Assembly (NCBI GenBank): GCA_965203055.1
Contig: OZ241863.1
Span: 1,120,001 to 1,184,000, forward strand
Source of the DNA: Spirochaetia bacterium
GTDB taxonomy: Bacteria; Spirochaetota; Spirochaetia; SZUA-6; Bin103
DNA: 64,000 nt
Direction: 5' to 3'
Made by a program: the position numbers and the translations under genes
Shown here: positions 320 through 40,014 of the stretch, piece by piece
How the letters are laid out: each line of letters opens with the position of its first letter
Position numbering within the stretch: position 1 is the first letter of the stretch
Notes under the pieces: model-generated
Seen by the model: only the letters and a program-made list of their open reading frames with translations
Told to the model about the DNA's origin: nothing
The model's database searches: none

Positions 320-654
320 GTTGAGACTCTCGAACTGCTGCCGCAGCCGCTCCTTGGCTGCCGATGACACCTCCTCCGCTGCCAGCACCCGTTGATACGG
401 CGTCTGCGGCGCATCGTACTGGCGCCGCGTCCGCGCTCCCTGCCTCGTCTTCGCCACCAGCTTCTGCGATCTTGACCAGGCGCCCGCCCCGCCAGATGAA
501 CACGGTGCGCCCCCAGCAGCGCAGCACCCACGCGGCATGATGGCGCGTCCAGCCGTTCAACTGCATCAACTGATCCAGGATGATGCCCTTCGTGCGCCGC
601 GACCCGCGCCAGTTCGCGCGTCACCGACTTGCGCTCTGCCATGGTCAGCCCCAT
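320..654 (-). pseudogene. Internally deleted, frameshifted DDE integrase/transposase remnant
   Basis: GGAGGAG SD, then MGLTMAERKSVTRELA...ILDQLMQLNGWTRHHAAWVLR joined directly to a C-terminal segment KLVAKTRQGARTRRQYDAPQTPYQRVL. The catalytic core is missing. Confidence 0.6.
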
Positions 655-829
655 CTCCTCCGACCTCCTGCCCCGATCTTGGGCCAGGTCGTTCGGGTGG
701 ATTCTTAGATTAGATGAGGCACCACTTACCCCTCGAGTGGATTTGGGTGCGGCAATGCGCCTGGTTGCCGCACCTGCTGAGGGCCGGTCCTTGTGTGCCG
801 CTCGCATGTGGTATGATCGGCACCTGACC

Positions 830-1792
830 ATGCACGATGCTGGCTACAAGCGGTTGTTTGCGCAGCCGCACACGGTTCAGGACCTGTTGCGCGGCTTCGC
901 CGCCCGCGACTGGAGCGAGGCTCTCGACTTCTCGACCCTCACCCCGGTGCCGGCCAGCTTCGTCAGCCACCGCCTGCGCCAGCGCCACGGCGATCTGGTG
1001 TGGCGGGTCCGGTTCCACGATGAATGGCTGTACCTCCTGGTGCTGCTGGAGTTCCAGTCCACCATCGAGCCGGCCATGGCAACGCGGATGCTGACCTACA
1101 CCGGCATGCTGTACGAGAAGCTGATCGACGACGGCGTGCTGCGCGAACATGGCAAGCTGCCGCCGGTGCTGCCCATCGTGATCTACAACGGGCGCCAACC
1201 GTGGACGGCGGCCGAGGACGTGGCGGAGCTGATCGCGTTCGGCGGGGAGGCGCTGGCGCGGTATCAGCCGTCGCTGCGCTACTATCTGCTTGACCAGGGG
1301 CGGCTGGGAGCGGACGATCTGCCGGGTCGCAACTTGGTGTCGGCGCTGATCGCGCTGGAGACCAATCGCGCGGATGAGCGGACGCCGGAGTTGCTGGCAG
1401 CGCTGTTCGAGCGGCTGCGGGAGTTGGAGACCCCAGAGTTGACGCAAGTGTACCGGGAATGGGTGAATCAGGTGCTGGTGCCGCGCAAGATGAAGGGCAC
1501 GGCGTTGGAATCGTTGCCGGGATCGGAGGAGGTAGGGCCGATGTTGCAGGAATTGGTAGCCGGATGGGTCGCGGAAGGCCGCGAACAGGGTATCGAGCAG
1601 GGCCGTAGCGAAGAACGCAGGCGGCTGTGCCGGCAGGCGGCGCTGAAGTTCACGCCGGAAACGGCGCCGCGGTTGTCCGTCCTGTTGGAGGGTCTGACCG
1701 ATCCGGAGAGCCTGTTGCAGGTCGGCGACTGGATCATCGAATGCGAGACTGAGGAGGATCTGTTGGCCCGTGTGCAGGACGCGATCCCATAA
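830..1792 (+). CDS. Rpn/YhgA-like PD-(D/E)XK nuclease (recombination-promoting nuclease)
   Basis: HDAGYKRLF start, GDLVW...LLEFQS motif, LPPVLPIVIYNG, C-terminal EGREQG. Start placed at ATG 830. Confidence 0.9.
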   Translation: MHDAGYKRLFAQPHTVQDLLRGFAARDWSEALDFSTLTPVPASFVSHRLRQRHGDLVWRVRFHDEWLYLLVLLEFQSTIEPAMATRMLTYTGMLYEKLIDDGVLREHGKLPPVLPIVIYNGRQPWTAAEDVAELIAFGGEALARYQPSLRYYLLDQGRLGADDLPGRNLVSALIALETNRADERTPELLAALFERLRELETPELTQVYREWVNQVLVPRKMKGTALESLPGSEEVGPMLQELVAGWVAEGREQGIEQGRSEERRRLCRQAALKFTPETAPRLSVLLEGLTDPESLLQVGDWIIECETEEDLLARVQDAIP

Positions 1793-1807
1793 CCCGGATC
1801 GCCGGCG

Positions 1808-2095
1808 GTGACGGTGAACGTCATCCGGCCAAGACGCAGATCTCGCCTCGTTTCGTTGTTATCGTTCGTAACGGCGATCCGGTGGCGCGTCTTGTCGGCC
1901 TCGAGGGCACGCAGGGCACGCGCCGGTTCGGCGCGTTGCGGGATCGGATCGTCGTCGATGACCGCTTCTTCGAACCGCTCCCGGAGAGCGATCTGGCCGA
2001 TGGACGCCGTGATCCATGCGGGTTCTGCTCAATACCATGCCTGCTGTGGTGCCTTGCCGGTAGTGCACCGACTTCGCGTGCAGATCACGACATGA
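1808..2095 (+). pseudogene. Decayed Phd/YefM antitoxin plus N-terminal VapC (PIN) toxin remnant
   Basis: Across frameshifts: VTVNV..AKTQIS..., IVRNGDPVARLVGL...RRFGALRDRIVVDDRFFEPLPE (antitoxin), then MRVLLNT..LLWCLAGS (VapC-type MRVLLDTHALLW start). Confidence 0.65.
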
Positions 2096-2110
2096 TCGGC
2101 AACCGCGGCG

Positions 2111-5100
2111 ATGTCCGACCCCAATAGGAAACGACGTACGTTGAAGCAGTCAACGATAAAGAGACTATACGCCCCTAGTGGGAACCAGTGTGCACACCCA
2201 GGATGTCAGAACCTGTTAATTGCACCAGAAACCGAGCAATCAGATGCTGCTGTTGTCAATAATATCTGCCACATATATGCAAGAAGCGATAGTGGCCCTA
2301 GGAATAACCCGGGCCTTACTGAAGAGCAACGAGATTCCGACGATAACCTGATACTACTTTGCGCGCATCACCACGGGATAGTGGACAAGCAACCGGAGAC
2401 CTACACCGCCGAGACACTCAAGCAATGGAAGCGAGAGCATGAGGCGAAAGTAAAGGACAGAATGTATTCCAATCGCATCCCGGTAGAATTCTTCACAAAG
2501 ATCATCGAAAAGGACATAAATAGACTCAGAAAGAGACTTTCCTTCGGAGATTCCAAGGACATCGAAACGGCACTATCACTCGCCTACCGGTTGACCGAAG
2601 GAAACTACTCGACTGGTCCGGACAGGGTCAGAGTGATCGGACTTGCATGGTGCGTCAGAGTTTTATCGGCCGGAGACAAGTTTGATGACGCCGAGCGATA
2701 CCTCGGCGCTGCCCGGAAAATCGGTTCCTGCGCAGAAATCAAGATCGCCAGTGCCATGACGTTGGCAGGCAAAAGAAACAAAAGAGGTGCGCTTAGCGAG
2801 TTAGGAGATCTCGATACGCCTACATCTCGATCGGCAGCATTCAAGGTGGTCGCCCGTCACGACGGACTGCAGCGAGCCATCGAGTGGCTCGACGCCTCGA
2901 ATATACCGCATGCAAAGCTCGACCACGATGGCAAATTGCTGCTTCTTAGGAGTCAACTTAAACTAGGTCTTTGGAACCAGGCGTTTGCAAGTCTGGATAT
3001 TGTCGACGATAACGATTTACGGGAAGCGCCGGCTCTGCATTTCTTCATCGGGATGACCAATCTGATGAAAGTTGTCCCGCCGGAGCTTCGCAACGTTGTA
3101 CTTCGATATCCGTCTTCTATCGGAGTGCCGCTTGCATCGGATACAATTGCGATGATCAACCTGCGTACCGCTTATTGTCACTTTGTCCGCGCAAGGGACG
3201 CGGCTAAGGACCTTGACTGTCTCGAAGCGTGCTCGACAGCAGAAGAATATTCGCTATGGACTGGTCTCAGACATCCTGACTTGAAGGCGCGTGCGCGACA
3301 CCGGCTCAAGCAGATACGGTGCGAGGACTCGTCGCGTCTTCGCTTTGTGTCGCTCGGTCTTCAGTTTGGACTCGATTTAGATAAACAGGACGTCGAGCGT
3401 AAGATCGAGCAGCAGATTGCCATCAGGGGAGGGCCTACATACGACACTGCCGTGGCGAGGTTTGCGATTGCGACGGCCCAAACGACACCGGGCGCGATAC
3501 TGGATTACCTCTCCAGGTACGGACGCGAACTGACTGATTTCATTGATAATCAGGCACTACGAAAGATCGAGATCGAGATGCTTGCGCGTGCCGGCCGTCC
3601 TCACGAGGCGAAGGAGCGCATGCGCGAGTTGTCGATCGACGGTACTTTGGATGCTGACGTCGATCGGCTCCAGGCGTGTATCGAAGAGTCGAAGGGAGCA
3701 GATCCAGTCGACATACGAAGACATCAGTTCGAACAGACGGATGATCTTATAGACTTAATACAGCTTGTAGACGGTCTCGAGTCAGCCAAGCGGTGGTCTG
3801 ATGTATGTCGCTATGGAAAAATACTTTTCGATAGGACAAAATCGATCGATCACGCGGAACGGCTGGCGCATGGTTTCCACATGACGGCAAGTGACGACCA
3901 CTTGTCTACATTTCTGACGGATAATTTTGAACTGGTCGAGAAGTCGTCGCGACTAAAATTTCTCCGCTGCGTAGCGCTATATTATGAGGGCCGATTTGTT
4001 GAGTCTCTCCAAGATCTGAAGAAGCTTCGTGATGAGTCGGGAGACTCGATTCAAGAGAAATCCTATCGTACACTTCAGATAGAAATCCTGGTCGCCTTAG
4101 GTGATTGGAAAGCTGTTACCGCAATCGTGACGGAGGAATACGGCAGACGAGACGAGCGGAGTGCGGAAGAACTGATGAAGTTGGCCGAGATAGCGTGCGG
4201 TCTATCATTTCCGTACGGTAAGGATATCGTGTTTGCAGCCGTAGAGAAGGGCAGGAGCGATCCGGCTATTCTGATGAGAGGGTTTAATCTGGCGTCGACA
4301 CATGGCTGGGATAATCATGAGGAAGTAGGGAAGTGGTTGCGGGATGCCGCGTCCTTGTCAGATACTGATGGACCGGTTTGGAAGATCTCCCTAAAGGAGG
4401 TCAAGGATCTGAGCAAGTCTTGGAATGGTCGTGTTACAGACGTATCGCGACGATTGTGGTCCGGAGAGGTTCCTATGTTCGTAGCGGCGCAGCTCATGAA
4501 TGCGTCTCTCTGCGGATTGGTCCTCGGGCAAGCGTATGGTAACTATGAAGAACGTGACCCTAGACGGAGATCGACGATCCCTGCCTATAGTGAGAATCGA
4601 CAGCGATCGACCACGACTGGAATCGATGGGACCTCGACAATCGCGGTGGATGGGACTGCGTTATTCACAATGAGCCTGTTGAACATCTTAGACAAATTTA
4701 TCGACTCATTCTCCATGGTCTATATTGCGCATAATACGTTGCCTTGGCTACTACATGAAAAACAGACGTCCATGTTCCATCAACGGCGACTGGTAGAAGA
4801 AGCGCGCGAATTACATCAGTTGCTTGCTACAAACGTATTAGAGATAATGTCGCCGAGTGTGGCGCCGAGTAGCGATCTGCGCGAACAGGTTGGTGGAGAT
4901 CTGGCTCAGATGATAGCGGAGGCAATGAAGTCAAGGAGCGGTGACGAGCCGCGGCCCCTTGTTGTCCGGTCGGCGCCCGTGTATCGACTGTCGTCCCTGA
5001 TGGAAGAAGAAGTCGATTTGATCGAATACTCCGATGTGTTAGTTTCGTGCAGTACGATCGTGAAGGCGCTCCGAACGAGGGGAGTGATCACGGTTACGGA

Positions 5101-6185
5101 GGAGAGACTGGCAAGCGAATATCTAGATCTTCATGAGCGATCGTGGCCAGATGAGCCGGAGCTAGCGGATAGAGCAACATTGTATTTGGATGATCTGTCG
5201 ATTACCTACTTCTTGCATATCGGTATCTTGGATAAAATCTACAGCGCGGGTTATCGAGTATTAGTTTCCCAAAGACGCGTATCGGATGCCAATCGTCTGA
5301 TTTCGTATCAGAGCGTTTTAGCGAAGGTGGACTGTGCAATTGAACAAGTCAGAGATGCGCTTCACAGGGGATTAATCGCAGGCAAGGTTTCGGTTGGAAA
5401 GAGGTTCGTCAACCGTGATATGGCGGACGAATCAATCGCGAGACACTCTACGATAGGTGTCGTTGGATTAGCAGATGTCTGTAATGCGATGGTGATCGAT
5501 GACAGGTTCATGAATAGACACCAGAATGTAGCCAATACCGAAGTTCTTACTACGCTTGATGTAATCGACATACTGGTTGGTCAGGGCGCTATGTCGGAGG
5601 ACGATCGGTTGGATTACCGTGCTTCTCTCCGTAGATATGGGTACGTCTCTATCTCTCTCGAACCCGACGAACTAAGGCAGCACATTGCGATGTCCACGGT
5701 AAAGGGTGGTGCGGTCTTAGAGACGGCTGAATTGAGGGCCATTCGAGAGAACATTCTAGCTCTTAGAATGGGACGTTGGATTCATAATCACGACGGATTC
5801 CTTTGGATCAACTCGTTCTTCAAGGTACTCAAGGATACCTTGAAGGATCTCTGGAGTGGTAGCGATGAACTTTCCAATGTCCGAGCTTGGTCGGATTGGA
5901 TCATGAGCCAGGTCGATATTCGTGGATGGATACACACTTTCGACAAGGTAAAGGATGGTGGCGTTATCGCGCGAATGTACATGATGACAGTCGCCGATTT
6001 GGTGCTTTCTCCGATGACGATTCCTGTGGAGAGACGGGATGAATTCCATCGTTTGGTTGGAGGAGCGAATACTGATTCCTATCAGGGACCATGATCGTGA
6101 AGTATTTTCGCAGATGGTCGGATATTGTCGAGAGTTGATTTCGAAAGCCGCTAATACCAACCTTAAGGAGTTTCAGAAGAAGTGA
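2111..6185 (+). CDS. Large putative defence protein: N-terminal HNH nuclease, long helical/TPR-like region, two C-terminal PIN-like domains. The ORF stops at 6094; a +1 frameshift near 6053 extends it to 6185
   Basis: SGNQCAHPGC...ICHIYARSDSGPR...NLILLCAHHHGIVD (Cap5-type HNH). PIN-like strands IAVDGTALFTM, LYLDDLSITYF, AMVIDDRFMN. GC is visibly lower than the flanks. Confidence 0.7.
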
Positions 6186-8113
6186 GCAGTAGTCGCTACT
6201 GGAGGCGTTCGGTCGTACATTTCACATTACAAAATATAACACCGCTGGTGCGCGACGAGCTACTGGAGGATGCGAATTTTCGGAACGAATACGACATCAG
6301 GCCAGATCCTATTCTGCAGTTCGGCCGCGATCTTTTCGTCCAGGGATCGGATCTGTGTGATGCGATCCGCAGGGTCCTGTCGGGTTCCTCGACGGCAGAA
6401 ATTATTGATCAGAAGAATCGGACGTGCAGGGTCGAGCGGGTGGACGATACTTCGGGGGTTCCTAGAATTGTACTTTCTTTTAACGGTAGTTATACCGATG
6501 TGAGTGATCACTTCGTACTGTCGCCGGATGAGCGTACACGGTTGGGCTACTTTGACCGCTTGTTGCGTACCTCGAATCTGTCACGTGATCCGATATCGTC
6601 ATGGCGGACCGTAATATCAGATCGAGCACTTGAAGATCACGAGGTGTATGAGTTGATGGGTGATATTGCCAATACGCCAGTTCGAAGAATGCGAATTATC
6701 CAAAGCATGGTAGCTCGCGATGAGAGCATCCGGGTTGACTCCTTGGTACCTCGGTCACGTCGATATTTCGAGAGACTGGTGGGGGCGTATGATGGAAGCG
6801 ATAGTATACAGGATTACGCTTGTGGCGCTGGTCGACGGCATATTCAGGCACTACTGGAATGGGAGCCTTGTAACGGATTCTTTTATAGTCTTCTTTTGTC
6901 GGCACACTCATCGTTGGTCAATCAGATAGACGTCGAGAGAATTGACCCTGACGATCTTATGCGATCGTTTCGTTTTTTGGAAAAAAAGGGTGACGTGCTG
7001 TCGCGAATGGGGGCGATCGAGGTCGGGTTTCGGCTAATAGGAGTCATGCCGGACTTGGAACCGGTTCTCGTTCGTCTCATTGAGCGCATGCGGGATGATG
7101 ATGGCCATGGACCGAAGAGTGGAGTACGGTTCATGTCGTCACTGTTTCAACTCGTCGACGGTGAGATTTCTAGGGTACGTCTGTTTTCCGACCGCCCGGC
7201 ATTCTATCGTAGATTGGCGGCCATGGCGCACGCGGCGCTGTTGTATCGCATATTCGGAGACTCTTACGAGGGGATGGCGGAGGTCGGCAATCGGATAGTG
7301 CGAAGTTACGGGAGCCGATTTATGGTTCAAACGCTGATCGACACACGTACGGAACCACGGTGGGGCTTCGACCTGGCAGAGCCGATATTTCTTCGGTCGG
7401 AATTTATGAAACGTATAGTGGCGGGAGCGCAGCCTGTTTTTAGCGACATCAGGGATCGTCATTTGCGGTCGCTTTTTGCGGTGAATGAAGCCGACGGGTC
7501 TTGCCGAGGGCTGAATTGGACGCCTTTCCTTCAACCTGGTCCGCTTGAGGGTGCGGGCGAAGTCGAAGGTAGGGTTCCATCTGAAATCACCGAACTGGTC
7601 GATGAGTGGCTTGCTGTTGACCCGATTGATCCGGCTGCGTGTGCAGGTTTGGGCTATCTTGTACGTATTGTAGACGTTGCGGATCAAGCGGAATCACTTA
7701 GGAGCCGTGTGGAGGAAGACGGGTTCCGGTTTTCGGAATCGGAGGATAAAGAGTCTTTGGTGCACGCAATGCATGGCCTGGCGACGGTGGCGGCGGTAAC
7801 GAGGAGTGTGGCACTTGGAGACCGGATAGCGGTACTCGTCGGCAAATATCGACGCGATGCTCGATGCCGACTATCGGTCGCCGAGGCGGTGACGATTGTT
7901 CTTGCGGCGGCGGCGAGTCGCGGCGATTCGAAGGAATGGATGGATTATGTGGGGAGTGCGCTGACAGGTCTGGCGTTTGGTGAGTTAGCGGATGACGAGG
8001 GACATCAGCTTCAAGGCTGGTTGAGAGAGATCTGCGATATAGTTCCCGAATTATGGGGATTCTGTGGACAGGCTGACGCCGCGTTGGCGGCATACAACGG
8101 AAGACTTGCCTGA
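6182..8113 (+). CDS. Hypothetical 643-aa protein, partner of the upstream HNH/PIN protein
   Basis: Long ORF in the same low-GC block. Its GTG overlaps the TGA of the frame-corrected upstream gene (GTGA at 6182-6185). No motif recognised. Confidence 0.75.
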   Translation: MSSSRYWRRSVVHFTLQNITPLVRDELLEDANFRNEYDIRPDPILQFGRDLFVQGSDLCDAIRRVLSGSSTAEIIDQKNRTCRVERVDDTSGVPRIVLSFNGSYTDVSDHFVLSPDERTRLGYFDRLLRTSNLSRDPISSWRTVISDRALEDHEVYELMGDIANTPVRRMRIIQSMVARDESIRVDSLVPRSRRYFERLVGAYDGSDSIQDYACGAGRRHIQALLEWEPCNGFFYSLLLSAHSSLVNQIDVERIDPDDLMRSFRFLEKKGDVLSRMGAIEVGFRLIGVMPDLEPVLVRLIERMRDDDGHGPKSGVRFMSSLFQLVDGEISRVRLFSDRPAFYRRLAAMAHAALLYRIFGDSYEGMAEVGNRIVRSYGSRFMVQTLIDTRTEPRWGFDLAEPIFLRSEFMKRIVAGAQPVFSDIRDRHLRSLFAVNEADGSCRGLNWTPFLQPGPLEGAGEVEGRVPSEITELVDEWLAVDPIDPAACAGLGYLVRIVDVADQAESLRSRVEEDGFRFSESEDKESLVHAMHGLATVAAVTRSVALGDRIAVLVGKYRRDARCRLSVAEAVTIVLAAAASRGDSKEWMDYVGSALTGLAFGELADDEGHQLQGWLREICDIVPELWGFCGQADAALAAYNGRLA

Positions 8114-8169
8114 ATTCGGAATCGATTGGTGATATTTGAGCAGCATGGACAGCATGATTGGTGGCGGGC

Positions 8170-11115
8170 ATGAGTGGCGCCGCCAGCAAACGCGATGCTG
8201 ACACCCGGCTGATCGAGCGGTGGCTGCCGATAGCGGCGCTTGGGATCGAGAGTATCCGCGAGCGGACGCCGATGACGCCGTTCCCGGCGCCGAACCGGTT
8301 GCACGTGTGGTGGGCGCGGCGGCCGTTGGTGGCGTCGCGGGCGGCGGTGCTGGCGTCGCTGCTGCCGGCGGACGCCGACCGGAAGCGGTTCCTGCGCGTG
8401 CTCGGCATCCACGGCGACCCGGTGGCGGCTCGAAGACTCATCGATAAAGCGCAACGGTCCGGCGTCAGAGTAAGCAACCCATATGACTATAGCCGCGCCT
8501 TCAGCTACGTCCTTGATGACCGTGATTTTCGTTGGTTGAAGTCTGAGATAGCGGACGTTTCGGTGCTCGACCCTACCGCCGGTGGAGGAAGTATACCGTT
8601 CGAGGTAGGTCGATTGGGTCTTGCTTGCTTGGGGAATGATCTCAATCCCGTTGCCGCCCTGATCTTGAAGGCGACGGTGGAATGGGTCGGCCAATTTCAC
8701 CAGGAGATAGAGACGGTATTCACCAGCTTGGCGGCAGAGTGGCGGGGACGAATGGAGGACCGTCTCACAGGGGTATTCCCTCAGATCGACCTTCCGGACC
8801 GGGTGGACATGACGTACCTCTGGGCGCGGACGGTGAGTTGTCCGTACTGCGGGGGGCGGGTGCCGCTGGCGCCGAACTGGCGGTTGGCGCCGGACGGGAC
8901 AGGGGTGCGGCTGGAACCGCTGGCCGCCGGTGGACCGGGAGCGCCGGGGCGGGTGTGCCGGTTCCATGTGGTGCATTCGGCGCGGGAGCAGGCGGCGGGG
9001 ACGGTGGCGCGCGGGGCGGGCAGCTGCCCGTGGCCGGATTGCGGGCGGGTGATCGCCGGCGAGGAGATCAAGGCGCAGGCGCGGGCCGGCGCGATGGGCG
9101 AGCAACTGTTCGCGGTGGTCTACAAGGAACGGGTGAACACGTATACGAAGACGGGCCGCCGGCGCGAGAAGTGGGTGCGCCGCTACCGCGCGCTGCGTCC
9201 AGAAGACGACAACGCCGCCGAGATAGCGGCGCGGCTGGCGGAGAAGCTGCCGGAGTGGGAGGCGTTCGACCTGGTGCCGGGGGAGCGGATCCCCGACGGT
9301 ACCAAGACTACCGAGCCGCTCCGCTACGGGATGCCGCGCTGGCGGGACCTGTTCTCACCGCGCCAACTGCTGTGCCACGGCACCGGCGTAGAGGTGTACC
9401 GCGAACTGCTGGAAGCCGACCGCGCCGCCGGCGCGCTGACGCCGCTGCGCCAAGCCGCCTACGGCTACCTGGCCCTCTCGCTCGACAAGACCCGTGACTA
9501 CAACTCCCGCATGACTCGCTGGCACGTAGGGCGCGAAGTAATGGTCAATACCTTCGACCGGCATGACTTCTCCTTCAAGTGGTCCTACGCCGAGATGGCG
9601 CCGCTGATCACCGGCCTGGGCTACGACTGGGCCATCCGCCAAACCGCCAAGTGCATCCAGGAACTGGTCGCCCTGGTGCGCCCCGGCGCCGGCGGCGGCT
9701 CCGGTGATCTGTTCCCTGAGTCGGGCGCGCGGCCCGCCGTCACCATCACCTGCAAGCCGGGCGACAACCTCGACCATATCCCCGCCGGCAGCGTCGACGC
9801 GGTGGTCATGGACCCGCCCTACTACGACAACGTGATGTACGCCGAGCTGTCCGACTTCTTCTACGTCTGGCTGAAGCGCACCGCCGGCCACGTCTTTCCC
9901 GCCCTGTTCCGCCGCCGCCTCACCGACAAGGAGAACGAGGCGGTCGCCAACCCGGCCCGGTTCCGCGGCCAGCCGGGCGCCGCGGCGCTCGCCGGGCGCG
10001 ACTACCAGGAGCGGATGGCGAGCATCTTCGCCGAAATGCGCCGCGTGCTGAGAGCCGACGGGGTGATGACGCTGATGTTCACCCACAAGGCGGCCGGCGC
10101 CTGGGACGCGCTGACTACCGGGCTGATGCAGGCCGGCTTCGCGATCACCGCGTCATGGCCGATCAACACCGAGGCGGAGGGCAGCCTGCACGTGCGCAAC
10201 AAGGCGGCCGCCAACAGCACCATCTTCCTGGCCTGCCGCCCGCGCACCGCCGCGCGCGGAGCGGACGACACCCCGTACTACTGGGAAGACATCGAACCGC
10301 GGGTAGCCGGCGCGGTGCGCGCGCGGGTAGCGGAGTATCAGGCGGCCGGCATCCGCGGGGTCGATCTCTACCTAGCCTGCTTCGGCCCTGCCCTGGAAGA
10401 GTTCTCGCGCCACTGGCCGCTGGCGCGCGGCACGCCGCGCCCGGCGCCGCAGGAACGGCCCCGCCGCCGGCGGCAGCCGGAGTTGGAGTTGGAGGCGGAG
10501 CGGGACCCCTACGCGGTGAGCCCGGAAGACGTGCTGGACACCGCCCGGCGGGAGGTGAAGCGCTGGCGGCAGGAGCAACTGACGCGGCGGCGGGAGGACC
10601 TGGACCCTGCCACCGCCTTCTTCGTGCTGGCGTGGGACGCCTTCGAGGCGCCGGTGTTCGCCTACGACGAGGCGCTGCGCTTGGCGCGCGCGGTGGGCGT
10701 CGACCTGGAGCGGGAGGTGGTGGGCCGCTTGGCGGAGAAGCGCGGCAGCGACCTGCGGCTGTGGGACTCGACGCGGCGCGCGGCCGGCGGAGCGCTGGGG
10801 CCGCCCGACGGCGCGCGCGGTATGATCGACGCCGTGCACCACGCCGCCAACCTGGCGCGCACCCGCTCGCTCGACGATGCCCGCAAGCTGCTCGACGAGA
10901 AGCTGGGCGCGCGGGAGGGGGCGTTCCTGACCGCGCTGGAAGCGGTGCTGGAAGTGCTGCCGGTCAGCAAGAGGTGGACCGGCATCGACCTGCCGGGCGA
11001 GGCGGCGGCCGCCGGCAGCGACTTCGAGGCGCTCTACCACTTGGCGCGCCTGGCCTACGGCGACCGGATCGACGAGCCGAAGCAGCTCCGGCTGTGGCAG
11101 GATGAAGCTGCCTGA
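8170..11115 (+). CDS. DUF1156-type adenine-specific DNA methyltransferase with Zn ribbon
   Basis: LHVWWARRPL, SAM motif DPTAGGGSIPFE, CPYC...CPWPDC, catalytic MDPPYYDN. Confidence 0.9.
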   Translation: MSGAASKRDADTRLIERWLPIAALGIESIRERTPMTPFPAPNRLHVWWARRPLVASRAAVLASLLPADADRKRFLRVLGIHGDPVAARRLIDKAQRSGVRVSNPYDYSRAFSYVLDDRDFRWLKSEIADVSVLDPTAGGGSIPFEVGRLGLACLGNDLNPVAALILKATVEWVGQFHQEIETVFTSLAAEWRGRMEDRLTGVFPQIDLPDRVDMTYLWARTVSCPYCGGRVPLAPNWRLAPDGTGVRLEPLAAGGPGAPGRVCRFHVVHSAREQAAGTVARGAGSCPWPDCGRVIAGEEIKAQARAGAMGEQLFAVVYKERVNTYTKTGRRREKWVRRYRALRPEDDNAAEIAARLAEKLPEWEAFDLVPGERIPDGTKTTEPLRYGMPRWRDLFSPRQLLCHGTGVEVYRELLEADRAAGALTPLRQAAYGYLALSLDKTRDYNSRMTRWHVGREVMVNTFDRHDFSFKWSYAEMAPLITGLGYDWAIRQTAKCIQELVALVRPGAGGGSGDLFPESGARPAVTITCKPGDNLDHIPAGSVDAVVMDPPYYDNVMYAELSDFFYVWLKRTAGHVFPALFRRRLTDKENEAVANPARFRGQPGAAALAGRDYQERMASIFAEMRRVLRADGVMTLMFTHKAAGAWDALTTGLMQAGFAITASWPINTEAEGSLHVRNKAAANSTIFLACRPRTAARGADDTPYYWEDIEPRVAGAVRARVAEYQAAGIRGVDLYLACFGPALEEFSRHWPLARGTPRPAPQERPRRRRQPELELEAERDPYAVSPEDVLDTARREVKRWRQEQLTRRREDLDPATAFFVLAWDAFEAPVFAYDEALRLARAVGVDLEREVVGRLAEKRGSDLRLWDSTRRAAGGALGPPDGARGMIDAVHHAANLARTRSLDDARKLLDEKLGAREGAFLTALEAVLEVLPVSKRWTGIDLPGEAAAAGSDFEALYHLARLAYGDRIDEPKQLRLWQDEAA

Positions 11116-11117
11116 CC

Positions 11118-14100
11118 GTGCTCGCCGACTACCCCTGGCAACTCAAGTACACGCCCGATGACGGCGACCTGGTGCGGTTGTTCTACGTGCCGGCGCTGCA
11201 GGAGGCGGAGCGCTACGACCGCCTGACCGGCTACTTCGACGCCGGCGCCCTGGCGCTCGCCGCGCGCGGCGTGGAAGGGTTGGTGCGCAACCGGGGCCGC
11301 ATGCGGCTGGTGGTCGGCTGCACCCTTGGTCCCGACGAAATCGATGCGCTCGACCGGGGTGAGGCGCTCCGCGAACAGGTAGAGCAGCGCCTGCACCGAC
11401 TGCCGCTGGCGCCGCCGGACGCGGCCGCGGCGGGCGCGCTGGAACTGCTGGCCTGGATGGTGGCGCGCGGGCACCTGGAGGTGAAGGCGGCGGTGCCGTG
11501 CGACGCCGAGCGGCGGCCGATCGCCGACGGCGCCCTGTTCCACGAGAAGACCGGCGTGATCGAGGACCGCGGCGGCGACCGCATCGCCTGGACCGGCAGC
11601 CTCAACGAGACCGCGGCCGGCTGGCAGCGCAACTGGGAGAGCATCAACGTCGCCACGAGCTGGGGCCCGGAACCGAAGCGGGTCGCCTGCGAGGAAGACA
11701 ACTTCGCGCGCCTGTGGGCCAACCGCGCGCGCCGCGCCATCGTGCTCGACGTGCCGGAGGCGGCGCGCCGCGACCTGCTGCGGTTCCTGCCGCCCGACGA
11801 CCGCCTGCCGGCGCGGCTGCGGGCGGACAGAGGCGCCGCGCCCGCGCACCCGGCGCACCCGGCAGGGCAGGCGTCGGTCCCGCAGCCGCCGCCCGCGCCC
11901 GGGCCGCCGGCGCACGACCGGCGCGGCCTGGTGTGGGCCTTCATCCGGGAGGCGCCGCGGCGCGCCGCCGGCGGCGAACGGGTGGGGGAGGCCACCGCCG
12001 CAGTGACGCCGTGGCCGCATCAGGTGCGCGCCTTCGAGCGCCTCTACCGGCAGTGGCCGCCGAAGCTGTTGATCGCCGACGAGGTGGGGCTGGGCAAGAC
12101 GATCCAGGCCGGCCTGCTGCTGCGCCAGGCGTGGCTCGCCGGGCGCGCGCGGCGCATCCTGATCCTGGCGCCGCGCGCGGTGCTGCCGCAGTGGCAGTTG
12201 GAGCTGCGCGAGAAGTTCAACCTCAACTGGCCGATCTACGACGGGCGCCGGCTGCTGCGCTATCCCTCGCCGGCGGTGCGCGGGCGCGCGGAGCGGGCGG
12301 TGGAGCCGGACCGCTGGCATGCCGAGCCGGCGGTAATCGCCTCCAGCCAGCTCCTGCGGCGGCGCGGGCGCGCGGCGGCGCTGCTGCAGGCGGAGCCGTG
12401 GGACCTGGTGGTGGTCGACGAGGCGCACCACGCGCGGCGGCGGGCGGCGGGGTCGGCGCGCGAGGGCGGACCGAACGCCCTGCTGCGGCTGCTGCGCCCG
12501 CTCCGCGAGCGGACCGCCGGCCTGGTGCTGCTCACCGCCACGCCGATGCAGGTGCATCCGGTCGAGGTGTGGGACCTGCTGAGCCTGCTGGGCCTGCCGC
12601 CGGAGTGGACGCAGGAGGCGTTTCTGCAGTTCTTCAGGGACGTGGCCGAGCCGAATCCGTCGGCCGCGGCGCTGGACCGCATGGCGCGGCTGTTCCAGGC
12701 GGCCGAACGCGCCTATGGCAGGGCCTCCGCCGAGGAGGTGCGGCGGCTGACCGGGCTGTCGCCGCTGAAGGCCAATCAGGTGCTGCGCGCGCTGCGCGAC
12801 GCGGCCAGCATCCCGCGCCGCCAACTGGAGACCCCGGAGCGCCGTGCGGCGCTGGCCGTGCTGCGGGCGCGCACGCCGCTGCGCCATCTCATCTCGCGCC
12901 ACACCCGCGAGCTGCTGCGCCGCTACTTCCGGGACGGCCTGCTTTCCACCCCGATCGCCGAGCGCCGGGTGGAGGATCGGTTCATCGACCTGAGCGCCGC
13001 CGAGCGGGAACTCTACGAGGCGGTGGAGCGCTACATTGCCACCAGCTACGCGCGGGCGGGCGCTGCCGAACGGTCCGCGGTGGGGTTCGTGATGACCATC
13101 TACCGCCGCCGCCTGGCGAGCAGCTTCCGGGCGTTGCGCGCCACCCTGGAGCGCCACCGCGCCGCGCTCGGCGCCGGCGGCGGGCCGCGGCCGGCCGGCG
13201 CCGCGGAGCTGGAGGAGGACGCGCCCGACGACGCGGCGAGCGAGGAGGCGCTGGACGCCGACGAGGTGGGCGACCGCGAGCGGAGCGCGCTGGCCGCCGC
13301 GCAGCGCGGGGAGATCGAGCTCCTGCTGGCCGCCATCGCGCGCCTGCCGCCGGACGGCAAGCTGGGGCACCTGCGCCGGGTGGTCGCCGGCCTGCGCCGC
13401 GCCGGCTACCGGCAGGCGATGGTGTTCACCCAGTACACCGCGACCATGGAGTTCCTGCGCGACGAGCTGAGCCGGGACGGCGGCCTGCGGCTGCTCTGCT
13501 TCTCCGGGCGCGGCGGCGAGGCGCCGGCCGCCGACGGTACGTGGCGCGCCATCGGCCGCGACGACGCCCGGCGCCGCTTCCGGGACGGAGAGGCGGACCT
13601 GCTGCTCTGCACCGACGCCGCCGCCGAGGGGCTCAACTTCCAGTTCTGCGGCGCGCTGATCAACTACGACATGCCGTGGAATCCGATGCGGGTGGAGCAG
13701 CGCATCGGCCGCATCGACCGCCTGGGGCAGGCGCATCCGGTCATCCGCATCGTCAACCTGCACTACGAGGGCACCGTGGAGACCGACGTCTACCGCGCCC
13801 TGCGCAGTCGCATCGGCTTGTTCGAGAACGTGGTGGGCCGGCTGCAGCCGATCCTGGCGCAGGTGCCGCAGGCGATTTCCGGCGCGGTACTGGCCGGCGG
13901 ACCGAGTGGCGGACCGGGCGCCGGGCCGGCGGAGCGCGGCGCCGCCGCGGTGGAGGCGCTGGAACGGGACGCCGCGGCGGCCGAGGCCGGCGGCTTCGAC
14001 CTGGACGCCGCGCTGGGCGAGGAGCTCACCCTGCCGCCGCGGGAGGCGCCGGCGCTCACGCTGGACGACCTGGAGCGGGTGATCGCCGACCCCGGCCTGC

Positions 14101-14330
14101 TGCCGCCGGGCAACGACGCGCAACCGCTGGGACCGCGCGAGTTCGGCCTGCTCGCGCCCGGCATGGGCGCGCCGGTGCGGGTCACCACCGACCCCGCCTA
14201 CTACGCGGAGAACGCGGAAAGCGTCGAGCTGTGGTCCCCCGGCAACCCGCTGTTCCGCCCGCCCGACTACCTGCCGCCGGCGTCCGCCCTGCCCCCGAAC
14301 GCCGCCCTTCCCGACCTGCTGGACCGCTGA
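11118..14330 (+). CDS. PLD-like nuclease domain fused to SNF2-family helicase
   Basis: FHEKTGVIED...TGSLNET (HxK/GSxN), LIADEVGLGKT, DEAHH, TATP, AAAEGLNFQ, QRIGRIDR. Starts 2 bp after the methylase stop. Confidence 0.9.
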   Translation: MLADYPWQLKYTPDDGDLVRLFYVPALQEAERYDRLTGYFDAGALALAARGVEGLVRNRGRMRLVVGCTLGPDEIDALDRGEALREQVEQRLHRLPLAPPDAAAAGALELLAWMVARGHLEVKAAVPCDAERRPIADGALFHEKTGVIEDRGGDRIAWTGSLNETAAGWQRNWESINVATSWGPEPKRVACEEDNFARLWANRARRAIVLDVPEAARRDLLRFLPPDDRLPARLRADRGAAPAHPAHPAGQASVPQPPPAPGPPAHDRRGLVWAFIREAPRRAAGGERVGEATAAVTPWPHQVRAFERLYRQWPPKLLIADEVGLGKTIQAGLLLRQAWLAGRARRILILAPRAVLPQWQLELREKFNLNWPIYDGRRLLRYPSPAVRGRAERAVEPDRWHAEPAVIASSQLLRRRGRAAALLQAEPWDLVVVDEAHHARRRAAGSAREGGPNALLRLLRPLRERTAGLVLLTATPMQVHPVEVWDLLSLLGLPPEWTQEAFLQFFRDVAEPNPSAAALDRMARLFQAAERAYGRASAEEVRRLTGLSPLKANQVLRALRDAASIPRRQLETPERRAALAVLRARTPLRHLISRHTRELLRRYFRDGLLSTPIAERRVEDRFIDLSAAERELYEAVERYIATSYARAGAAERSAVGFVMTIYRRRLASSFRALRATLERHRAALGAGGGPRPAGAAELEEDAPDDAASEEALDADEVGDRERSALAAAQRGEIELLLAAIARLPPDGKLGHLRRVVAGLRRAGYRQAMVFTQYTATMEFLRDELSRDGGLRLLCFSGRGGEAPAADGTWRAIGRDDARRRFRDGEADLLLCTDAAAEGLNFQFCGALINYDMPWNPMRVEQRIGRIDRLGQAHPVIRIVNLHYEGTVETDVYRALRSRIGLFENVVGRLQPILAQVPQAISGAVLAGGPSGGPGAGPAERGAAAVEALERDAAAAEAGGFDLDAALGEELTLPPREAPALTLDDLERVIADPGLLPPGNDAQPLGPREFGLLAPGMGAPVRVTTDPAYYAENAESVELWSPGNPLFRPPDYLPPASALPPNAALPDLLDR

Positions 14331-14460
14331 ACCGCCCGCCGCCTGCTTGCATGCAACCGTGGTCCGGCAACCGCAACCACCGCCAGCCCGGAGTGAGGTG
14401 GTCCCGGAAAATTGGACAGGAGGTTAAGGTGTATTCCAGGCCATGAGGAGGGCCGATGGG

Positions 14461-14745
14461 ATGGCGACGAAACGACGCCGATTCACAGCACAGTTCAAAG
14501 CCAGGGTGGCGCTGGAGGCGTTCCGCGGGGACCGCACGATCCAGGCGATCGCGGCCAAGCACCAGGTTCATCCGAATCAGGTCAGCGTCTGGAAGCGGCA
14601 AGCCCAGACCGGGCTCGAAGAACTGTTCGCCGCGACCGCCAAGCGCGGCCCCGCCGAGCAGGAGGCGCTCATCCATGACCTCCATGCCAAGATCGGCGAG
14701 TTGACCGTGGAGCGCGATTTTTTAGCGCGCGGGCTCGATCGCTGA
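14461..14745 (+). CDS. IS3 transposase OrfA (HTH)
   Basis: MATKRRRFTAQFKARVALEA...HQVHPNQVSVWKRQ. Confidence 0.9.
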   Translation: MATKRRRFTAQFKARVALEAFRGDRTIQAIAAKHQVHPNQVSVWKRQAQTGLEELFAATAKRGPAEQEALIHDLHAKIGELTVERDFLARGLDR

Positions 14746-14765
14746 GCCCGGAGCAACGACGGCTG

Positions 14766-15600
14766 ATGGTTGACCGCGAGCATTCGAGTCTCAGCTTGAG
14801 TCGGCAGTGCCGGCTGCTCGGCGTATGCCGCTCGGCCCTGTACTACCGACCGCGCGGAGCCAGCGCGGCGACGCTCAGCTTGATGCGCCGCATCGACGAG
14901 TTGTACCTGAAGTACCCGTTCTACGGCAGTCGGCAGCTGGCCCGGCATCTGGCGCGGGAAGGGGTAACGGCGGGGCGCCACCGGGTGCGGCGGCTGATGC
15001 GGCTGCTGGGGTTGGAGGCGATCTACCGCAAGCCGCGCACCACGGTGCCGAACCCGGACCATCAAGTGTATCCGTATCTGTTGAGAGGGCTTACCATTAC
15101 GCGACCGAATCAGGTGTGGTGCGCAGACATCACCTATATCCCGGTGCAGGACGGGTACCTGTACTTGGTGGCGGTGATGGACTGGGCGAGTCGGCGGGTG
15201 CTGGCCTGGGAACTGGCGAATACGCTGGACAGCGAGTTCTGCCTGCTGGCGTTGGCACAGGCGCAGGAGCGCTACGGCAAGCCGGAGGTCTTCAACACCG
15301 ATCAGGGCAGCCAGTTCACCAGCAGGGCGTTCACGGGGCAGTTGGAGGCGGCCGGGATACGCTGCTCGATGAGACGGTCGTGGGCGCTGCCTGGACAACG
15401 TGTTCATCGAGCGGCTGTGGCGGTCGTTGAAGTATGAGGCGGTGTACCTGCACGAGTTGGCGGACGGCTTCGCGGCGCAGCGCGTGATCGCGGAGTGGAT
15501 GGAGTTCTACAACGAGGTACGCCCCCACTCGGCGCTGGACGGGCGGACGCCGGCGGAGGCGTACTGCGGCGTGGCGGCGCCGGCCGGGCAGGTGGCGTAG
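14766..15600 (+). pseudogene. IS3 transposase OrfB (DDE), frameshifted at about 15372
   Basis: WCADITY, NTDQGSQFTS. An extra A in ATGaGACGGT breaks MDGRGRCLDNVFIERLWRSLKYE, which is intact in the second copy at 39.4 kb. Confidence 0.85.
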
Positions 15601-18901: not shown

Positions 18902-19976
18902 GGGCACACTTCCAAAATGTAGGTAAGCGTCAGGCCGCTTGGCGGCCAAGCCCAAGTCTCAGTGATCACCGGTCTACCGGCGCCTGACGATCCTCGCCGG
19001 GGCGGCCGCATCCGGCGCCGGCGTGGCGGTAGCGGTGATGGGCGGCGCACAGCAGGCGGAGATTGTTCGGCTCGGCGGCGCCGCCGCAGGCATACGGCAC
19101 GACGTGATCGATCTGCAGCAGGTGTTGGGAGCCGCAACGGCGCCCGCTGGTGCGGTCCACGTAGCGGCAGCGGCCGCGGTCGCGCCGCCAGACCTCGCGC
19201 TTGACCGCCGCCGGGATGGCACGGCCGGTCACGCCGCCGGCCTTCGCTGCCGAAGTTTCGGTCCGCGCCGGCGGCGCGGGCTGCGCCACGCCCGCCGTCG
19301 CAGCCTGCCGGCCGAGGCGCCGCGTCTTCGGCGCCGAAGTGGCGTCGGTCGCCGGCTTCGCTGCCGAAGTGTCCGGGCGGTCAGCGGCTTCCTCTCCCGG
19401 CTCCGCCGCCGCCTGAGCCGATACCTTCGCCGCCGAAGGAGCGGCGCTGTCCGCGCCGCGAGCCGAGGCCGCCTGCGTCTTCGCCGCCGAAGTTTGCTCG
19501 GCTCCTATGGCCGGCGCGGCGCGCCGCCCGCGCGGCGGCCGGGCCGGATCGTGGCGGTCGAGCCCTTCCCGCACCAGCCGCCCCATGAGCTGCCCCATCG
19601 TCATGCGCGGATCGACGTGGGACAGGAGGCCCTGGAGCCGCTCCAAGCCGCGCCGGCACTCATCGTCGATCACCGCCTTGAGCTCCCAGCGCCCGCCGCC
19701 CAGGGGCCGCACCCGATCCGCCGGCGCCAGCTCCGGGTCCACCTCGGCCAGCAACTGCATCACCTGCCGGCTGCTCTTGCCGGACGCCTGCTCCACCAGC
19801 TCCCGCCGCGCCTCCGGGTCCAGCACCGGCGCCGGCGCCGGCTTCCGCTCCGCCGGCCGCGGCGGCGCCGAGCCGTTCTGCGACTGAGCGGCAGCCCCGC
19901 ACCCGGTCCCGCGCGGCGCGCTACGCGCCGCGCGTTCCTTCTTGCGCTCCTGCCGGTCGAACGCATGCTGCAACTC
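18902..19976 (-). mobile_element. 5'-truncated second copy of the HNH-encoding element at 45455-47141
   Basis: Near-identical protein from QHAFDRQERKKE to the C-terminal HNH, plus the shared 3' non-coding end finishing in GAAGTGTGCCC (18912-18902). Confidence 0.85.
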
Positions 19977-19991
19977 TGCGTGCGCCGAATG

Positions 19992-20234
19992 TCAGGGTAT
20001 TATTTTTCTATCTTTCTTTGAATAATAGGAGAGCGGACTACGTTTCTTCGTGTATTTGATGTAATTTTGGTGCCGTGATAAACTAAAACCATAATGGTTT
20101 TTTATTTTTGTTCTTATTTCGCTTCCATCTTTTAGATAAAGAACAATTTCTGGAATACGTTCAGAAGTAGTTTCAATTTTTACTTCTTCCATTGAAAAGA
20201 TAGTTAGAACTGATTCAATTAATTGTTTTGACAT
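19992..20234 (-). other. Very AT-rich foreign fragment with an 80-aa ORF of unknown function
   Basis: About 30% GC by hand count of two lines, against very high GC in the flanks. ORF MSKQLIESVLTIFS... Confidence 0.55.
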
Positions 20235-20249
20235 TTATAAACCCCCAAT

Positions 20250-20525
20250 TCAGATGCAATCGTGCACACGGCGCGTGGTTGCCGACGGCTGCTTCCGCAT
20301 CCACGAGCAGCACTACCAGCTGGTCAGGTGGAGTTCCGGTAACCGCGTTGTGAAAGCGTTCGAATGTCTGCTGACGGCTACCGCACGGGACGAGCTCCAA
20401 CGCAGCGACTTCGCTCTGGCCTGCTGCTTGATCGGGCGGAGAAATGCATCCATGCCTCGTCGTAGCGCAACCAAGGTGTCCCTACCGTCTCCCCCGCCTT
20501 CCAGGTAGATGGTGATGCCGTTCAC
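20250..20525 (-). pseudogene. DUF4276-like (Toprim-fold) partner of the ATPase, frameshifted near 20396 and truncated
   Basis: MNGITIYLEGGGD...LRW then, in another frame, LVPCGSRQQTFERF...VLLVDAE. Its start overlaps the ATPase stop. Confidence 0.75.
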
Positions 20526-21712
20526 GGATTGGCGCCTAGTTCACCCATTCGCCACAGGTCGCCGAGTCGATATTCGTCCAGCCAACTGCTCAGACGCTCG
20601 GGGTCGAGCCGGCGCAGGACGGTGCCCTCGCCGGGACGCTCGCAGGTGAGCACGGCTTCCGGCTGGCCGGTCAGTTCCGAGATCAGCGCATCCGAGTGGG
20701 TGGTCACGATCAGTTGCATGCGCGCGGATGCCTCGACCAGGATCTCGGCGAACAGCGCCACCGCGTCGGGGTGCAGGCCGAGCTCCGGTTCTTCGATGCA
20801 TACCAGCGGCGGCGGAGACGGAGACAGAAGCACCGCCAGAATGGCGATGAAGCGGATCGTGCCATCCGACAGGCGCGTCGCCGGTACCGGCGCGCGAAAG
20901 CCCGTTTCGTGCAGATAGAACTGGACAGTGCCGCCGGAGATGCGGGTCGACATCCGTTCATAGCGAGGAAAGAACCGCGCCAGCAAGTCATCGAATCTGC
21001 GGCCGTCCCGGTGCTCGATCTGATTCAGCACCAATGCCAGGTTGCTTGCGTCGTCGAGCAGTCGGTCTTCGGGGTGATCCGTTCGTTGTGGCTGCCGCAG
21101 CGGCGTATAACGGCCGAACGTCCATTCCCGGAACGTCCGCATGGCGCCGAAACGCTCGCCGAGCCACGTAATCTCGGGATACACGTCGGGATCCTTGCGC
21201 TGCGCCATGACTGACTGATCCGGCAACAGCTTTTCCCGCTGGAGATGCCGAGTATAACCGGGTCCACCGCCGGAGGTATCCTTTACGTTGATGGCGGGTA
21301 GCCCGCGTTGGAAACGATAGTAGAAGTAAACATCGGCCTTTCCGGGTTCAGCGACGGTCTCCTCAATCGCCTCATCCAGCACTTCGACGCGTCCTCCCAC
21401 GGCCGTGAACTCGAGGCGGTAGCGCAGCGGCCGGTGGGTTGGCGTGCCGGTCCCCAACTCGACGTCGATCGTGGCCGCCCGATCCCCTGGTCCTTGTCCC
21501 TTCCACAGCCACTCTTGCGGACCGCCGCCGTCGCGAATCGCGGCCGCCAAGTTGGCAGGAGTCGCGTGGAGCAGCTCCACGGCTTCGATCACGTTCGACT
21601 TGCCCGCTCCGTTGGGGCCGATCAGGACGTTCAGCGGCTCAAGTTCGATGGCCTCCGATCCGGGCGCGAATGACAGGAACGAATCGAGATGGAGTCGTTG
21701 GATGGTCTTCAT
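20522..21712 (-). CDS. ABC/AAA_21-type ATPase (AbiEii-like)
   Basis: LIGPNGAGKSN, LSDGT, IEEPELGLHP, TTHS. Confidence 0.9.
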   Translation of the reverse strand: MKTIQRLHLDSFLSFAPGSEAIELEPLNVLIGPNGAGKSNVIEAVELLHATPANLAAAIRDGGGPQEWLWKGQGPGDRAATIDVELGTGTPTHRPLRYRLEFTAVGGRVEVLDEAIEETVAEPGKADVYFYYRFQRGLPAINVKDTSGGGPGYTRHLQREKLLPDQSVMAQRKDPDVYPEITWLGERFGAMRTFREWTFGRYTPLRQPQRTDHPEDRLLDDASNLALVLNQIEHRDGRRFDDLLARFFPRYERMSTRISGGTVQFYLHETGFRAPVPATRLSDGTIRFIAILAVLLSPSPPPLVCIEEPELGLHPDAVALFAEILVEASARMQLIVTTHSDALISELTGQPEAVLTCERPGEGTVLRRLDPERLSSWLDEYRLGDLWRMGELGANP

Positions 21713-21726
21713 GGCAGCCGCGCGGA

Positions 21727-27150: not shown

Positions 27151-27206
27151 TACCGACTTGGCGACACTGGTTGGCCGGTCTGCCGGAATGCTGCTACGGT
27201 GCTCTC

Positions 27207-39726: not shown

Positions 39727-40014
39727 GTTTCCTATGGGGAATAGTCCTACTGATAGCAGGGACACTATGATAGACATCTTACGGTCTACAAGGCAAAAGA
39801 AGCGTTCTGAGCGTGGAGTGCCAGACCGGGGATCGCTTCGCGAGCGGATCAAAGACCTGGGTCCGGGGTAGGCTGCGTGGTGTGTGCCGTGGTCGGAACG
39901 TTGGGGCAGCGCGGGCGCGCTGAGCGTATTGCTGCCTGAACGCCACTGCGTGATGAAAGTGCGCCGGGCCGGCGGTGGCGGCGGGGCGGGGAATAGGGTA
40001 TCCTGGGTGTCGTT

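Follow-up and report, generated by a model that had tools for sequence, protein, structure and literature searches.

Genes A and B, two adjacent genes at positions 2,111 to 8,113 of a 64,000-nucleotide stretch of Spirochaetia bacterium DNA (assembly GCA_965203055.1, contig OZ241863.1, positions 1,120,001 to 1,184,000 of the forward strand; the whole stretch is called the window below), probably encode the two parts of a split TPR-double-PIN anti-phage sensor related to the TPR-GreA/B-C-PIN (TGP) proteins, which would cluster on infection, destroy DNA through its HNH head and stop the cell. This reading is built on established features: the domains and their conserved residues, the linkage and fusion of the two genes, the exchange of heads and a foreign base composition. 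An initial annotation, made by a model from the letters alone, had described both genes as much lower in guanine plus cytosine (GC) content than their flanks, and this was borne out, gene A having 50.9% and gene B 53.5% against 65-76% in the flanking genes. At 51.6% the pair has a lower GC content than any 6-kb window of the genome (4.56 Mb; mean 68.7, standard deviation 3.4).

An earlier scan of genomes with the single B protein gave no confirmed locus, and a B profile was needed. With this profile 160 loci were collected (the best 80 of 102 genomic and the best 80 of 140 metagenomic matches), 11 of which were cut by contig ends, and 149 were assessable. Gene A was adjacent to B in 119 of these, fused to it in 29 and located 1.7 kb upstream in one; no B was found without A. 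Since A adjoins B upstream or is fused to it at 148 of 149 loci, the best view of B is that it forms the C-terminal third of a single protein that is split here and that in many other bacteria has about 2,000 residues in one chain, not the separate scaffold or regulator proposed at first. The 29 fused chains measure about 1,900-2,250 residues, some of them being cut or broken. On a FastTree tree of 106 non-redundant C-terminal halves of A, the fused or split state changed 14 times (shuffled mean 21.8), and at least seven of the changes were forced by well-supported branches. Seen from the A side, seven of 23 family relatives carried the PIN region, and B was adjacent in all seven, five of which were already among the counted loci. 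In three plasmid records with a 25-27% identical B, A matched just upstream, and the overlap was kept in the two annotated regions. B was detectable in three of the five hits among 400 sampled genomes of another phylum; the other two, together with two cyanobacterial plasmid proteins, were chains of about 2,000 residues whose tails matched B weakly (Prob 77% pooled). Side observations on these relatives are that the cyanobacterial plasmid proteins of this branch (L256, L257) have 2,100-2,200 residues, that L257 carries a caspase annotation and directly follows a multiubiquitin/ThiF/DUF6527 operon, and that one B (L022:8444-11797) has an N-terminal extension of about 500 residues between it and the split A.

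A 4-base overlap was found in 73 of the 119 adjacent loci, and of 112 distinct split junctions 65 have a motif like a ribosome site ahead of B, which is seen at 14% of control positions. Programmed frameshifting as the means of joining A and B was rejected, slippery sites being present at 8 of 112 junctions and 3% of controls, compared with ribosome sites at 65 of 112. The 1:1 coupling of B with its own ribosome site and the absence of a catalytic motif from B would also suit an antitoxin-like guard that silences a toxic A until a phage product removes or degrades it and frees the nucleases. We regard this as highly improbable, because the 29 single chains and the repeated fusion and fission at one junction fit a subunit better than a labile antitoxin; moreover, B follows A in gene order and is 643 residues long.

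The N-terminus of A was found to carry the Cap5-type HNH that had been assigned to it. The residues C27, C32, H54, N79, C84, H87 and H88 are present and vary little or not at all among 28 aligned homologues with an HNH head, and the best PDB matches of the head are 9om4 (E 2e-19) and HNH-SAVED proteins. The Pfam HNH match had an E of 0.001, slightly under the cut-off. Matches to HNH-SAVED models end at residues ~120-134, and a CBASS reading was rejected, no SAVED domain being fused to the HNH. The PADLOC search suggested by the initial annotation recognised the HNH head, which was its sole match in the pair, and had no model for the core of A or for B, and NCBIfam matched neither gene; the branch is therefore unrecognised in many defence islands.

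Among 117 loci with a complete start of A, the head shows the HNH pattern in 50 and a short motif in 40, the other 27 having neither. In the part of these 27 that was scanned, SMEK (4), alpha/beta hydrolase (2), metallophosphoesterase (2) and an Avs4-type nuclease (1) were recognised, and three were HNH or HNH-fragment cases; TIR and weak Cap4 matches were seen in further homologues. The head type changed 20 times on the tree. The two-gene order is thus kept while several kinds of effector are exchanged on a constant core, as the initial annotation had proposed to check. The short motif (consensus QSISxGDxSTNVIAGRDV) is repeated at the C-terminus of a gene of about 70 residues directly upstream, whose product has one hydrophobic helix and would be a single-transmembrane (TM) protein. 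A profile seeded on 12 of these genes found them at all 40 motif loci and at none of the 50 HNH loci or the 27 others (for example L011:5957-6169 and L020:6013-6228, plus 38 other loci). The protein belongs to no Pfam or NCBIfam family; EAD10 matched two of five weakly (E 0.06-0.08). On a scale of 18 identical positions, cognate motif pairs scored 10.4 and shuffled ones 9.6 (32 distinct pairs, not independent). By analogy, the small gene and the motif of A form a candidate new amyloid-signalling pair. At one locus (L039) a similar TM segment with the motif is fused to A itself. No upstream gene sharing a motif exists at the window locus, which has the HNH. HNH of this type is activated by tetramerisation, according to the available part of PMC12738770. 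The best argument for a core that works by clustering is that an amyloid seed and a tetramer-activated HNH appear to be interchangeable on it.

Behind the head, residues 399-750 of A can be aligned to the TPRs of canonical TGPs. Further evidence for TPRs came from weak TPR/PPR matches in the PDB and from TPR_19 in some homologues; Pfam TPR models did not match the A of the window itself. A Walker A motif is absent from A and B, no NTPase family was matched in the library scans, and GxxxxGK[ST] occurred in one of 49 homologues. The pair is not an Avs, because it has no STAND P-loop NTPase, in agreement with what was first annotated. When a canonical TGP profile was built from 24 proteins and compared with the profile of A, the two aligned over the TPR and PIN regions (Prob 95.5, E 1.4e-8, 710 columns). 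The alignment collapses across the canonical GreA/B-C domain, for which A has no match; canonical TGPs score on PF01272 between TPR and PIN.

The two PIN-like segments originally noted in A were confirmed. PF20698, the PIN of the TPR-GreAB-C-PIN system, matched two stretches (37.3 bits, cut-off 27.8) following PF24407, the order of the double-PIN branch of Pfam, in which PF24388 comes downstream, in B or in the fused chain. The region from the helix-turn-helix (HTH) through both PINs and the tail to B was modelled for a fused homologue, L083, which shares 47% identity with A in that region (pLDDT 88). In a fold search with this model the top eight rows were PIN proteins with middling Z values of 7.2-8.7 and root-mean-square deviations (rmsd) of 2.8-3.8, the best being 1o4w (Z 8.7, rmsd 3.3, 121 aligned) and 2dok (Z 8.5), and about 27 of 50 rows were PIN folds, some of them presumed to be such. 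All PIN-fold matches begin at model residues 93-100 and finish at 407-458, and the N-half of the first PIN therefore pairs with the C-half of the second. Two distant relatives with a single PIN jump from profile position 874 to 1073, keeping the same two halves and missing the ~185-residue insert. The model and these relatives suggest that an outer PIN, the ancestral one, encloses a permuted second PIN, and a plain tandem duplication may be an alternative that the sequences alone would allow. Distant relatives of this single-PIN kind, with the halves that are paired in the model and about 2,000 residues, are L254 and L255; the head of L254 is presumably a PNPase/nucleosidase.

In 117 homologues of less than 90% identity the outer PIN acids are conserved regardless of head type: acidic residues were counted in 117 of 117 at D847, 115 at E883 and 117 each at D1130 and D1131, with D1130 always Asp and D847 and D1131 Asp or Glu. 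The inner set D930, D1027 and D1059 is acidic in 104-110. This conservation supports an explanation in which the PIN is the main weapon and the A+B complex degrades phage or host RNA, the HNH being a back-up; it corresponds to the dual-nuclease idea of the initial annotation and to the first-line model of Kaur et al. A split PIN is essential in DS-3 (available part of PMC13092281), and an Agp PIN mutant lost defence but was also destabilised (available part of 10.1101/2024.11.07.622273). Nevertheless, none of the 117 complete A genes is without an N-terminal extension, which suggests that the core alone is insufficient, and at least 90 of these extensions are an HNH or a motif paired with an upstream gene. 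The acid sets of both PINs are also incomplete. On balance a PIN-driven system appears unlikely. The RNase activity of A is no more than plausible because one canonical acidic position is missing from each PIN set, and cutting of nucleic acid by both HNH and PIN is likewise plausible from the residues present.

Gene B had been annotated as an open reading frame (ORF) with no recognisable motif. That holds for the window's own B, on which no Pfam family scores, PF24388 ('Permuted GreAB-C') being below its cut-off; it does not hold for full-length homologues about 40% identical to B, on which PF24388 is above the cut-off, an 82% identical homologue having an E of 0.003. The model of B (pLDDT 86) contains a small beta domain (residues 44-106), whose strand order is compatible with a permutation of GreA/B-C, followed by a helical solenoid. 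Fold searches with B returned generic helical repeats only (Z up to 10.4) and hardly bore on the beta domain, Foldseek gave nothing at E up to 0.001 for either model (B and the L083 region), and a PDB sequence search with a profile of the beta domain gave no match. The best ESM Atlas scores, 0.80 and 0.78, are leads only. Prediction of a complex between B(1-165) and the rim-helix region of the host beta' subunit scored 0.00 against a mark of 0.32 and has no bearing either way.

Given these findings, the following sequence of events is proposed. A and B would be made 1:1 by translational coupling, through the overlap and ribosome site of the intact allele, and would assemble into what is a single chain elsewhere, as the fusions suggest. 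The helical bodies, the beta domain of B and the PIN module would sense a cue of infection. RNA polymerase, hijacked as in the TGP hypothesis, can be named as the trigger for this branch only tentatively and with considerable doubt. Sensing would lead to oligomerisation, which we infer because of the kinds of head found: a tetramer-activated HNH, TIR, Cap4-like nucleases and an amyloid-like motif that recurs in a membrane protein encoded upstream. The clustered HNH heads would then cut double-stranded DNA non-specifically, causing abortive infection by analogy with Cap5 and SPARHA, and the outer PIN would likely bind or cut RNA, either as sensor or as first-line nuclease. Taken jointly, the A-B assembly, infection sensing, oligomerisation and HNH-driven abortive death seem to us probable. 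If so, the branch would offer a testable NLR-like sensor that oligomerises without an NTPase, and would add a PIN fold of the nested kind and a second amyloid-signalling pair of bacteria. A bolder version makes the branch a separate NTPase-free immune platform that dropped the RNA-polymerase-docking domain, nested a permuted PIN and gained a 640-residue subunit for a different phage cue, with clustering driving either fused enzymes (in the window the HNH) or the ~70-residue membrane killer via a new amyloid motif. This we think somewhat unlikely; if true, the ~70-residue single-TM protein would be one of the smallest membrane-killing effectors known.

The branch comprises 1,241 clusters at 50% identity (E up to 1e-30) and occurs in at least 18 named phyla, including one archaeon, among 80 genome loci. 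The distribution is patchy, with 7 of 23 family relatives, 0 of 17 other members of the order and 5 of 400 sampled genomes of another phylum. The neighbourhood was assessed on the nearest neighbours of L001-L080 (four near-duplicate loci skipped, one ORF dropped as part of A), with PADLOC at E up to 1e-15 and proteins cut to 520 residues. PADLOC matched 31 of 130 nearest neighbours and 0 of 43 neighbours of greA (p 6e-5). Type I restriction-modification genes were the commonest neighbours, a cluster that we take from its sequence to be HsdM-like being present in 12 of 160 loci. None of the three outcomes that the initial annotation had named against itself was found: the PIN fold is there, the linkage is conserved and defence neighbours are common, with a mixed control.

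Another possibility is that A+B does not act in phage defence at all and is instead an accessory of the DUF499/DUF1156/PLD-helicase system, or has a plasmid-directed or stress-death role. The pair lies directly upstream of DUF1156 in the window and three close relatives, and no relative was found in viral contigs and phage records. Nonetheless, neighbours of the DUF1156 type occur at only 3-4 of 160 loci and other loci adjoin type I, IIG/ISP, III or IV restriction genes, Argonaute or integrases. In addition, in contigs of the public runs X1 and X3 the upstream DNA runs directly into DUF1156, at what may be paralogous sites. We consider this the least probable of the alternatives.

Several results weigh against the defence sensor proposed here. 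The predicted enrichment near defence genes, which held against greA neighbours, was not significant against the rest of the defence-rich window (31 of 130 versus 5 of 33, p 0.35), and crude ORF calls underlie the counts. The bridging Glu of Cap5/SPARHA is Asn51 in the window's A, at a position that varies across the family. Neither PIN has the full set of four acids, with T/S at 1114 in the outer and R/Q/C at 953 in the inner PIN, positions which we take to be the canonical acidic ones of PIN motifs. A lacks the GreA/B-C between TPR and PIN that defines TGPs. B gave Prob values of 0.2-0.8 directly against canonical TGP or GreA profiles (0.2% for GreA, 0.4% for TGP), compared with 95.6% for canonical TGP against GreA as a positive control, and at most 1.3% against circularly permuted TGP GreA/B-C (0.3% for reversed controls). 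No phage test for the double-PIN branch was found in the literature searched. Finally, the window's own allele of A is damaged at its C-terminus.

This damage is due to one extra base, which replaces the last 43 conserved residues of A with 13 unrelated ones and abolishes the stop/start overlap with B. The assembled A ends at 6094, 87 bases before B. The other frame holds the tail conserved in close homologues, and its stop TGA at 6183-6185 overlaps the GTG of B, so the intact allele of A runs to 6185 and encodes 1357 residues. The length of ~1350 residues and the GTGA overlap originally described are consequently correct for the intact allele and not for this assembly (1327 residues, 87-base gap). 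Contigs of the runs X3 and X4, from one sample that may be the source of the assembly, have the extra base at depths of 16 and 184, and so has a contig of X5, from another study, at depth 2; it is absent from contigs of X1 and X2 (one sample) and of X6 and X8 (diverged strains); X7 does not cover the site. The X1 contig (6273 bases) spans 1962-8235 with three substitutions relative to the window. Because contigs of three runs carry the extra base, the frameshift is most likely a real allele and an assembly error is unlikely. The stretch is contained in sponge metagenomes, none of the listed public runs holding it being an RNA dataset. Its nearest neighbours in the A tree are metagenome-assembled genomes of Spirochaetia, and the host is probably a sponge-associated member of this class.

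We lean slightly towards the view that the window's copy is a decaying or attenuated allele of a weakened or dead system, which is compatible with a defence role of the family. The frameshift removes conserved C-terminal helices of A, including the nearly invariant W1315, together with the coupling to B, and contigs with and without the extra base occur among the public runs. Pro22 would in addition break the first HNH helix, which mediates dimerisation in SPARHA (available part of PMC12738770); Pro was found at 22 in 0 of 50 HNH heads from related loci. On the other side, only 43 of 1357 residues are lost, B retains its own ribosome site, the HNH ligands and conserved PIN acids are intact, and the X5 support comes from a contig of depth 2. 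Intact and frameshifted alleles a few bases apart across sponge-associated samples provide a natural control.

Table 1. Positions of the features of the A-B locus and its surroundings in the window.
Feature	Position	Strand	Remarks
Broken copy of small antitoxin-like ORF	1794..1998	+	Within duplicated Rpn + small-ORF block; left edge of low-GC insert
Gene A as assembled	2111..6094	+	1327 aa; HNH - helical repeats - HTH - nested double PIN - helical tail
Cap5/SPARHA-type HNH head	2129..2470	+	aa ~7-120; His/Cys ligands intact
Helical-repeat (TPR-like) body	2483..4375	+	aa ~125-755
PF24407 HTH_upst_double_PIN	4391..4600	+	aa 761-830; E 5e-15
N-half of outer (ancestral) PIN	4643..4780	+	D847, E883
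~185-aa insert, putative second, circularly permuted PIN	4781..5332	+	D930, D1027, D1059 mostly acidic
C-half of outer PIN	5333..5575	+	D1130, D1131, R1132, N1135, D1150
One extra base in A	6050..6054 (near 6052)	+	Shifts frame
Shine-Dalgarno-like AAGGAG before GTG of B	6165..6170	+	Motif scan of junctions
Gene B	6182..8113	+	643 aa; back part of split protein; no catalytic motif recognised
Small beta-sheet domain of B	6311..6499	+	aa 44-106; Pfam 'Permuted GreAB-C' in homologues
Helical solenoid of B	6503..8107	+	Generic HEAT/ARM-like fold matches alone
DUF1156 methyltransferase	8158..11115	+	Context; same system in which A+B is embedded
PLD-SNF2 helicase	11118..14330	+	Context; same system as DUF1156

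The pair is embedded in a restriction-like DUF499/DUF1156/PLD-SNF2 system, directly before DUF1156, with the DUF499 gene ~9-11.5 kb left of the window (Table 1). Embedding inside another system is a published hint of defence, in a paper that concerns other host systems (available part of 10.1101/2024.01.29.577857). The whole genome (G000, 4.56 Mb) holds 13 DUF1156 and 4 DUF499 matches, a strong expansion of this restriction-like system. The small antitoxin-like ORF upstream is presumably Phd-like. Its block with an Rpn/YhgA-like gene is duplicated, at window 629-1998 and left of the window at G000:C1:1118331-1119627, and the second copy of the small ORF is broken at the start of the low-GC insert. 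A VapBC reading of the locus was rejected, this ORF belonging to the duplicated Rpn block. No sigma-70-like promoter was found at 1700-2300. A second lower-GC two-gene cassette follows DUF499 (L214:10689-13954, window -7312 to -4047) and encodes proteins of 707 residues and of 381 residues, the latter with a P-loop motif. Within the window there are also a three-gene PDC-M55 A/B/C candidate defence system (27171-31133; ABC ATPase, unknown, GmrSD-like) and, on the minus strand, a HEC-01A-like ABC ATPase followed by a short low-GC ORF (19992-21910). Very GC-rich ORFs at window 18966-19973 and 45694-47043 and at L214:4874-6238 are possibly a small mobile family; the first two have a C-terminal HNH, and the last two share a near-identical N-terminus. 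Genes or fragments at window 14443-15437 and 39249-39770 are, from a reading of their translations, presumably IS3-like transposases.

The system was called uncharacterised in the initial annotation, and at the family level it is not: Kaur et al. (eLife 2021) described the TGP family, of which it forms a branch, and Pfam has domains specific to it. The parent family being published and the domains already named, it is not a new kind of system. TGPs are described in the available part of that work (PMC8195603) as mostly standalone genes, ending in the PIN, with 13 swappable effectors, the HNH among them, and are hypothesised to bind a hijacked RNA polymerase and cut the transcript, with the effector as a fallback. 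A shares with them a variable N-terminal effector on a constant TPR and PF20698-type PIN core; unlike them it has two PINs instead of one, a helical tail and the additional B part of ~640 residues, separate or fused. The pair would work like a TGP yet departs from it in two defining features. One row of the supplement of the same paper (file 13 lay outside the search), a 2304-residue 'SIR2+TPR+PIN+PIN' protein, may be a fused member of the double-PIN branch. The curated families PF24407 and PF24388 describe exactly this branch, fused homologues carrying both, A scoring on the former and the window's B staying below the cut-off of the latter. No literature on the branch or naming these families was found, subscription journals being mostly outside coverage; term searches of PMC12419801, PMC8086366 and 10.64898/2026.10.19.760177 gave nothing on it.

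A close parallel studied by experiment is Bab/Agp, in which, according to the available part of 10.1101/2024.11.07.622273, phage T5 sets off abortive infection and the templating of amyloid by a TGP onto a small membrane protein, and Agp mutants support the predicted binding of the TGP to the beta' coiled coil of RNA polymerase. The short N-terminal motif of a TGP-type sensor repeated at the C-terminus of a small upstream membrane-targeting gene is likewise seen at 40 of 117 branch loci. The window's A, however, has an HNH and not the motif; the branch partner is a ~70-residue single-TM protein, not a Bell domain of 109 residues; the BASS11 residues given in that paper differ from the branch motif, the full BASS11 sequence being outside the comparison; and Agp has a canonical GreA/B-C, one PIN and no B. 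With Cap5 and SPARHA (PDB 7rwk, 7rwm, 8ysq, 9om4) the pair shares the HNH subtype with its catalytic His and Zn ligands, and there the HNH is activated by oligomerisation (available part of PMC12738770), but A+B has no SAVED or APAZ domain and no cyclase or Argonaute partner, and the bridging Glu is not conserved. Finally, Avs and other STAND proteins resemble the pair in being large repeat sensors with a swappable N-terminal effector and in sharing effector types such as the Avs4 nuclease. They differ in possessing the P-loop NTPase that A+B lacks, and any oligomerisation switch in A+B must therefore differ from theirs.

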